64,000 nt of DNA from Escherichia coli (GTDB taxonomy: Bacteria; Pseudomonadota; Gammaproteobacteria; Enterobacterales; Enterobacteriaceae): the NCBI RefSeq assembly GCF_022846255.1, contig NZ_AP025682.1. The stretch is one strand, 5' to 3'. Of the stretch, positions 33,089-33,712 are shown in pieces. Numbering within the stretch: position 1 is the stretch's first letter; every line of letters starts with the position of its first letter. The notes under the pieces were generated by a model. It did no database searches, was not told the origin of the DNA, and saw only the letters and a program-made list of their open reading frames with translations. The translations under genes were made by a program, and so were the position numbers.

Positions 33089-33712
33089 TTAATCCAGTTG
33101 CGTAATATCAAAAGCGGCGCGGTCGATCACCGCAATGATCTTTTTTATTTGTGCATCAGTGATATCGCTCTGGTTGACGCGTAAATCCAGCACCGCTTTA
33201 AAATTATCCAGCGCCCGCTTCATTTGCGGGTTCTGGCGCAGCGCAGCGCCAACGCAACGCGCTTTGATGCGTTCTTCAATCATCTCTACCTGTTCGCGGT
33301 TTTCTTCCAGCCACTGCGCGCCTTGTTCGGTCAGCGCAATCTGCTTCTTACCACCTTCCTCTTCGCGAATGGTAATCAGCGACTGCTCCTGCAGAAAATC
33401 CAGCGTCGGGTAGATGACGCCCGGGCTTGGGGTGTAATTCCCCTGGGTCAGATTTTCAATCGCTTTAATCAACTCGTAACCGTGGCTGTCATCGCGCGAG
33501 AGAATATCCAGAATCACCAGACGCAATTCACCGTGACCAAAGAAACGTTGTCGACGACCGCCGCCGCGACCGTGGCGACCACCGCAGCATTGACCGTGTT
33601 CATGCTGGTGACCGTGTCCGCAGTGCTCGTGTTCTGACTTCTCACCTTTGCAGCAGCCCTCATGGCGTGGCTGGCCTTCATGTTTACAACACCCTTCGTG
33701 ATGATGGCTCAT
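33089..33712 (-). CDS. yqjI: PadR-family metal-responsive repressor YqjI
   Basis: 207-aa ORF with His/Cys-rich N-terminus MSHHHEGCCKHEGQPRHEGCCKGEKSEHEHCGHGHQHEHGQCCGG followed by a PadR winged-helix domain. Confidence 0.9.
   Translation of the reverse strand: MSHHHEGCCKHEGQPRHEGCCKGEKSEHEHCGHGHQHEHGQCCGGRHGRGGGRRQRFFGHGELRLVILDILSRDDSHGYELIKAIENLTQGNYTPSPGVIYPTLDFLQEQSLITIREEEGGKKQIALTEQGAQWLEENREQVEMIEERIKARCVGAALRQNPQMKRALDNFKAVLDLRVNQSDITDAQIKKIIAVIDRAAFDITQLD

Follow-up and report, generated by a model that had tools for sequence, protein, structure and literature searches.

Positions 33089 to 33712 of the window, by which we mean the whole stretch of 64,000 nucleotides of Escherichia coli DNA analyzed here, are an intact nfeR (yqjI) gene on the minus strand, whose product is very probably a nickel-relieved repressor of the neighboring gene nfeF, built from a tail rich in histidine and cysteine and predicted to be disordered, a Gly/Arg junction, a PadR domain, and three C-terminal helices. 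NfeR and its nickel-binding N-terminal extension have already been published; the feature is thus real, ordinary, and already known. The gene, its parts, and its divergent neighbor are as follows:

33089–33712, minus strand: coding sequence of nfeR (yqjI) (open reading frame; 206 of 207 residues as in K-12 b3071; RefSeq annotation).
33584–33712, minus strand: variable part of the tail, rich in His and Cys, residues 1–43, with HHH, two copies of HEGCCK, and HEHCGHGHQHEHGQCC (motif positions; AlphaFold2 pLDDT 45–59; length and composition variable among homologues).
33533–33583, minus strand: Gly/Arg junction, residues 44–60, GGRHGRGGGRRQRFFGH (column conservation in an 88-sequence alignment).
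33305–33514, minus strand: PadR winged helix-turn-helix DNA-binding domain, residues 67–136 (Pfam, PDB sequence matches, Foldseek, pLDDT 95–98).
33092–33304, minus strand: C-terminal helical region, residues 137–207, with helices 139–159, 162–180, and 186–204 (AlphaFold2, pLDDT 87–96).
34000–34764, plus strand: nfeF (yqjH), NADPH-dependent ferric-chelate reductase, the divergent target gene (open reading frame, Pfam, RefSeq annotation).

The list of open reading frames (ORFs) gives 207 codons and a stop for nfeR, starting at an ATG, hence a protein of 207 aa; the initial annotation had its coordinates right and left the strand, which is minus, unstated. Compared with K-12 b3071 (NfeR/YqjI), the coding sequence shows 11 nucleotide differences and the protein a single substitution (T185 here, S185 in K-12), and the tail is identical in the two strains. 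The RefSeq name for the identical protein, as carried by genomes that are 100% identical over positions 33000–34100 of the window, is NfeR (WP_000018005.1). Several complete E. coli chromosomes match this 1.1-kb stretch without a single difference, and 5421 out of the 5426 complete genomes of the species contain at least 80% of it; nfeR is a core gene of E. coli, and the allele found here is the common one. The tail is native to the species, as had been proposed: the 183 bp that code for it are found at full length in 5422 of the 5426 complete genomes and with at least 99% identity in 4029, which speaks against a sequencing error, the one objection that the initial annotation had named.

nfeR sits between aer and nfeF in the order patA, aer, nfeR, nfeF, ileX, mug, rpoD, which is that of K-12 in inverted orientation, and it is divergent from nfeF, a SIP-type ferric reductase gene whose product matches the Pfam families FAD_binding_9 (E 1.6e-36) and SIP (E 1.7e-25), the domains of siderophore-interacting ferric reductases. 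With the K-12 gene order retained and a continuous 207-aa ORF that is identical to b3071 at all residues but one, the locus is intact, and the practical value of the feature is that of a sanity check on the integrity of the aer-nfeR-nfeF-ileX-mug-rpoD locus. On the other side of nfeR, where its stop codon faces that of the convergent aer, the spacer (33061–33088) is 28 bp long here vs. 153 bp in K-12, which has an additional REP-type insert of about 125 bp. Beyond nfeF, the tRNA gene at 34818–34893 (minus strand) is called tRNA-Met (anticodon CAT) by ARAGORN and tRNA-Ile (ileX) by RefSeq, the K-12 record being tRNA-Ile(CAU). The CAU anticodon of the ileX tRNA is modified to lysidine and reads Ile. 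As for patA (ygjG; 29743–31233, minus strand), its longest ORF has 496 aa vs. 459 aa (1380 nt) for the RefSeq product, so that the mechanically chosen start lies upstream of the accepted one.

The translation of nfeR starts with MSHHHEGCCKHEGQPRHEGCCKGEKSEHEHCGHGHQHEHGQCCGGRHGRGGGRRQRFFGH, and the His/Cys composition of its tail is far beyond chance. Counted over residues 1–60, there are 13 His, 7 Cys, 14 Gly, and 6 Arg, against 1 His and 1 Cys in all of residues 61–207. As a background, we slid 60-aa windows along all 54 ORFs of at least 150 aa found in the 64 kb (15,754 windows): the tail has 20 His plus Cys per 60 aa, the next-highest ORF, a spurious antisense frame, has 13, and the mean is 2.3. 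With approximate E. coli proteome frequencies taken from general knowledge, the binomial probability of the tail is about 6e-15. HHH stands at residues 3–5, HEGCCK occurs twice (5–10 and 17–22), and HEHCGHGHQHEHGQCC and GGRHGRGGGRRQR follow at residues 28–43 and 44–56, respectively. The CC pairs are three in number (8–9, 20–21, and 42–43), with C31 as a further cysteine; the two pairs announced earlier are consistent with this count, the third lying inside HEHCGHGHQHEHGQCC. At the DNA level, a repeat search on the tail-coding sequence turned up one direct repeat, 24 nt long and weak (75%), where Gly/Arg is encoded, and Tandem Repeats Finder detected no array in that sequence. The tail-coding DNA is also read in an alternative frame by a 55-aa ORF (33514–33681, minus strand). 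Six homologues that start with MKA (P0005, P0062, P0063, P0123, P0126, and P0234) have their tail in the alternative frame, rich in Ala, Thr, and Val and devoid of His and Cys; presumably, a frameshift lies in their sequences or in the way the genes were called.

Behind this tail comes the PadR domain, in the arrangement first described for the locus: residues 67–136 match PF03551 over profile positions 1–74 of 75 (E 2.5e-15, 56.6 bits vs. a gathering cut-off of 27). An AlphaFold2 monomer model, built from an 88-sequence alignment, has a mean pLDDT of 82.9, with values of 45–59 and no secondary structure in residues 1–55, 78 in the junction residues 51–60, 95–98 in the winged helix-turn-helix core (62–127), and 87–96 in the helices 139–159, 162–180, and 186–204; in this model, the N-terminal tail, about 55 residues long, is predicted to be intrinsically disordered. 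All of the top 50 Foldseek matches in the PDB are PadR-like winged-helix regulators (mostly PadR, LmrR, and Rv3488) with probability 1.00; phmmer found 26 PadR-type chains among the PDB sequences (best E 6e-9), and no structure of NfeR was found in the PDB by sequence search. With a profile score above the threshold and a winged-helix fold like that of solved PadR proteins, NfeR belongs to the PadR family (PF03551). It has the winged-helix core in common with regulators such as Brachyspira PadR (9qbc), LmrR (3f8b), B. subtilis PadR (5x11), and M. tuberculosis Rv3488 (5zhc), at sequence E-values of 6e-9 to 8e-3 and TM-scores of about 0.6–0.75 normalized to the target, whereas its three-helix C-terminal region aligns poorly with them and its tail is matched by none. 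The tail alone matched no chain among the PDB sequences at E up to 10, nor did the tail or the C-terminal region give anything meaningful against Pfam at E up to 10; homologues conserve the C-terminal helical region from end to end.

An alignment with PadR homologues, the check proposed with the initial annotation, was run with 88 sequences, and it showed a conserved junction and folded part together with a tail variable in length and composition. The Gly/Arg stretch had been counted as part of the metal-binding extension; judging by the alignment columns (R53 in 72 of 88 sequences, R56 in 82, F58 in 79, G61 in 82), it is instead a conserved family junction lying outside the variable metal-rich region, and the pattern of this PadR subfamily can be written GGRxxRΦFxHGxLR. 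A junction of the type R-x-x-R-hydrophobic-F also ends 121 of 126 tails in a wider sample, namely the complete representatives among the best 150 of the 1,788 clusters that match NfeR.

The divergent spacer between nfeF and nfeR is 287 bp long, exactly as in K-12, and contains four candidate regulatory sites:

33733–33746, strand not applicable: nfeR-proximal palindrome TTAGATATATCTAA, presumed NfeR operator, 21 bp upstream of the nfeR ATG (motif search, conservation).
33929–33953, strand not applicable: Fur-box-like sequence over the −35 and spacer of the nfeF promoter-like site (consensus scan).
33933–33962, plus strand: sigma-70 promoter-like site for nfeF (TTAACA, 18-nt spacer, AATTAT; consensus scan).
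33963–33976, strand not applicable: nfeF-proximal palindrome TTAGATATATCTGA, presumed NfeR operator, directly downstream of the promoter-like −10 (motif search, conservation).

The 14-bp palindrome TTAGATATATCT(A/G)A has only these two matches in the 64 kb, and none out of 100 shuffles gives two. There are 30 differences from K-12 in the spacer, none of them in either palindrome or in the Fur-like site, so that the K-12 locus has the same palindromes and Fur-like site. Further away, the palindrome is found at both equivalent positions in a Lelliottia locus (L006), and two perfect copies stand at the equivalent positions in locus L008, where the PadR protein is 54% identical and the divergent SIP reductase partner is found as well. 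On these grounds, the two palindromes are presumed to be NfeR operators. The other two sites are weaker: the promoter-like site has 9 of 12 consensus matches, with 1 site found vs. 1.3 expected in shuffles, and the Fur-box-like sequence is a weak consensus match, at best 14/19 to GATAATGATAATCATTATC with overlapping 13/19 matches, in a window where nine sites of at least 14/19 occur over both strands and where the Fur consensus has no match with three or fewer mismatches over the 64 kb. According to its title as cited, Wang et al. (2014) deals with two YqjI binding sites in this intergenic region, and Fur is listed as a regulator of yqjH (PMC9501238; Wang 2011, according to its cited title). 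Two palindromes plus a Fur-like site fit these published accounts of dual YqjI binding and control by Fur. A 32-bp REP-like palindromic unit, GTAGGCCGGATAAGGCGTTCACGCCGCATCCG (33813–33844), also stands mid-spacer, flanked by the palindromes, and an identical second copy lies 13 kb away at 47231–47262. Most of the spacer differences from K-12 cluster around the unit at 33813–33844, and it accounts for the matches of the 1.1-kb query, whose median number per E. coli genome was 27.

In the literature, NfeR is a nickel-responsive regulator (PMC9508795) that represses the neighboring ferric reductase gene nfeF, this repression being lifted by excess nickel (PMC7981267), and NfeF reduces iron in Fe-enterobactin products (PMC6460284). 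In K. pneumoniae, the deletion of nfeR raised nfeF expression 85-fold and left the nickel sensitivity of the mutant unchanged in vitro, the latter point counting against the mechanism that follows (PMC7981267). In this mechanism, apo-NfeR bound to the two TTAGATATATCT(A/G)A palindromes, one lying over the point where the nfeF transcription unit begins, the other just upstream of nfeR, would repress both nfeF and nfeR itself, and Fur would independently repress nfeF when iron is replete. Rising cytoplasmic Ni(II) would be captured by the His/Cys ligands of the disordered tail; the Ni(II)-bound tail would then allosterically lower DNA binding, and the NfeF made as a result would help free iron from siderophores while nickel disturbs the iron supply. 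The anatomy and conservation used here are our own computations, and repression and its relief by nickel are taken from the literature; from these, we infer that a metal-induced ordering of the tail may act via the conserved, Arg-rich junction that lies between it and helix 1.

The nickel-binding tail of SlyD offers a comparison. A local alignment of the NfeR tail with K-12 SlyD falls wholly in the C-terminal tail of the latter and scores 102; shuffles that preserve the composition score 67 ± 10, with a single one in 1000 getting as far (z about 3.4). This is, one should keep in mind, low-complexity sequence. Both tails (SlyD being E. coli b3349) are disordered, made of His, Cys, Gly, and acidic residues, with GCC and GHxHxHEHG..CCGG motifs, but that of SlyD is the C-terminus of an FKBP-type prolyl isomerase/chaperone, and that of NfeR the N-terminus of a DNA-binding protein. 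The likeness appears to lie in the arrangement of the motifs, and its origin could be convergent. Wang, Wu, and Outten are said to have pointed out in 2011 that the N-terminus of YqjI resembles the Ni-binding C-terminal tail of SlyD and to have linked the tail to the metal response. Conserved cysteines are reportedly needed for nickel-induced allostery, a finding attributed to Blahut et al. in 2018, and tail deletion or His/Cys mutation is said, from the work of Wang in 2011 and Blahut in 2018, to abolish the nickel response.

Nickel might nevertheless be merely the best laboratory inducer of a module that has a broad specificity or senses iron, the true effector being Fe(II), the Fe/Ni ratio, Co, or Zn. 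The regulated gene, indeed, codes for an iron-assimilation enzyme that is also under Fur, purified YqjI has reportedly been found to carry iron besides nickel, and the Cys-free, His-only tails of some orthologues suggest that ligand sets, hence metal preferences, vary by lineage. We regard this possibility as unlikely, given the resemblance of the tail to the Ni-binding tail of SlyD and an accessible literature that consistently describes NfeR as nickel-responsive (PMC7981267, PMC9508795).

How the ligand sets vary can be followed in the 120 closest database proteins, which we took as the set of close relatives. Their folded parts are 63–100% identical and their tails are 12 to 93 aa long (just 12 aa in P0073 and in P0113, whose contig of 1.1 kb is too short to show a gene neighborhood), with a constant start, M-R/S-H-x-H, and a constant junction, GGGRRQRFFGHGELR. 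The enterobacterial orthologues (Citrobacter, Salmonella, Lelliottia, Leclercia, Phytobacter) share this junction with E. coli NfeR and are 63–82% identical to it in the folded part, but they differ in the tail: Citrobacter has two to five repeats of the HEGCCKGEGH type, which suggests repeat expansion and contraction between species; Salmonella tails are different again; Lelliottia, Leclercia, and Huaxiibacter tails are His-only and free of Cys. In the Citrobacter proteins P0012, P0038, P0041, P0043, and P0060, the tails measure 31 to 93 residues, with differing copy numbers of a unit of about 10–20 residues, and the E. marmotae tail (P0003) has an extra HE. Despite the turnover in sequence, His enrichment is kept in nearly all Enterobacteriaceae tails. 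In Lelliottia, the tail has no Cys, yet the gene still stands back to back with a SIP reductase gene and has both palindromes; since such orthologues, with nfeF and the palindromes, have Cys-free tails, Cys ligands are not a universal requirement of the mechanism.

These same orthologues weigh on the idea, which we find improbable, that the tail senses redox state (thiol/disulfide) through its three vicinal CC pairs and C31, with oxidative or thiol stress, instead of metal binding, switching the repressor. Although yqjI is up-regulated under several stresses, including oxidative stress, in a meta-analysis (PMC9501238), Cys is wholly absent from the tails of orthologues that share the operators and partner gene, and the E. 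coli tail is dominated by His, with 13 His vs. 7 Cys.

Beyond the close relatives, an exhaustive search of 1.84 billion representatives found 1,788 clusters matching NfeR at E ≤ 1e-10. For the 126 complete representatives among the best 150 of these clusters, a sample in which the full-length query, tail included, may favor tail-bearing relatives, the median tail is 59 aa long, with medians of 41% Gly+Arg and 9% His; 73 of the tails are without Cys, and only 7 have a CC pair. Conserved metal-related neighbors were sought for distant homologues whose N-termini are rich in His and Cys, rich in His, or poor in tail (P0213, P0195, P0129, P0257, P0263, P0202, and P0135), and none were found, the contexts being unrelated or the contigs too short; P0213 and P0195, with very His/Cys-rich tails, and P0257, with a His-rich one, have unrelated neighborhoods and no SIP gene. 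The tail had been put forward as a marker for metal-sensing PadR regulators. So far as these comparisons go, it is a weak one, with Cys-free orthologues paired with nfeF and more than half of the sampled relatives lacking Cys, and a poor general one because these orthologues keep nfeF and distant His/Cys-rich homologues stand in unrelated neighborhoods. By the same comparisons, the His/Cys enrichment of the E. coli type is an elaboration peculiar to its lineage. Instead of a paired SIP reductase gene, distant PadR homologues that bear a tail often have a small gene behind them on the same strand (L003 5794–5967, L004 5896–6171, L009 1474–1782, L014 4133–4456), the products being a 57-aa protein without a domain or proteins with DUF2798, DUF3861, or DUF2218; a PadR gene with such a small gene may represent a different, uncharacterized regulon architecture.

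Within E. coli, in-frame tandem duplications are found in the tail, though rarely. Nissle 1917 and its derivatives have one of 21 bp, adding RHGRGGG for a protein of 214 aa (L015 160–804 in Nissle 1917), which occurs in 19 of the 5426 genomes, mostly these strains; the clinical isolate M21816 has one of 24 bp, adding HGQCCGGR and thus a fourth CC pair for a protein of 215 aa (L016 114–761), in one genome. Both map to the Gly/Arg junction part, the same region as the weak 24-nt repeat, and, at the level of the alleles compared, they show how the tail changes length.

A tail of 12–93 aa with an extremely variable composition looks like a segment under relaxed constraint, and one could see in it a metal store or buffer, or an appendage for solubility or oligomerization, with no signaling role, sensing being left to the folded domains; some homologues, P0113 and P0073, do manage with 12 aa. 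We give this reading very little credit, as almost every Enterobacteriaceae tail has stayed rich in His, the E. coli tail hardly varies over 5422 genomes, and tail deletion reportedly abolishes the nickel response. That the His/Cys run is an artefact, read in the wrong frame or caused by faulty sequencing or assembly of low-complexity DNA, has next to no chance of being true and was rejected: some homologues (P0005, P0062, P0063) do read the tail in the alternative frame, for which there is an ORF here too (33514–33681), but the 207-aa ORF is continuous with the PadR domain and identical in thousands of independent complete genomes, and the RefSeq protein match, the near identity with K-12, and the tail-coding 183 bp in 5422 of 5426 genomes refute this explanation.

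Coming back to NfeR as a nickel-relieved repressor, what is mildly new in our analysis is descriptive only and drawn from sequence comparison: a conserved junction, Cys-free orthologous tails, an apparently repeat-driven length variation, and a conserved pair of palindromes. For discovery, the feature as a whole counts for little; the conserved Arg-rich junction and the tail variants may interest researchers working on metalloregulators. We would tentatively suggest, while thinking it somewhat less probable than its opposite, that an older, disordered Gly/Arg arm, which a large PadR subfamily has in common and which always ends in GGRxxRΦFxHG(D/E)LR, has been overlaid by the His/Cys segment, specific to the lineage and evolving fast; this overlay would grow and shrink by in-frame tandem duplication, as seen between Citrobacter species and rarely in E. 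coli (Nissle 1917, M21816), and so tune metal affinity or selectivity. The natural tail variants, namely the Cys-free tails, those with differing repeat numbers, and the 7-residue duplication of Nissle 1917, would be useful for asking which ligands set nickel sensitivity. If the overlay reading is true, the cysteines reported as necessary in E. coli would not be a general requirement of NfeR-type sensing.
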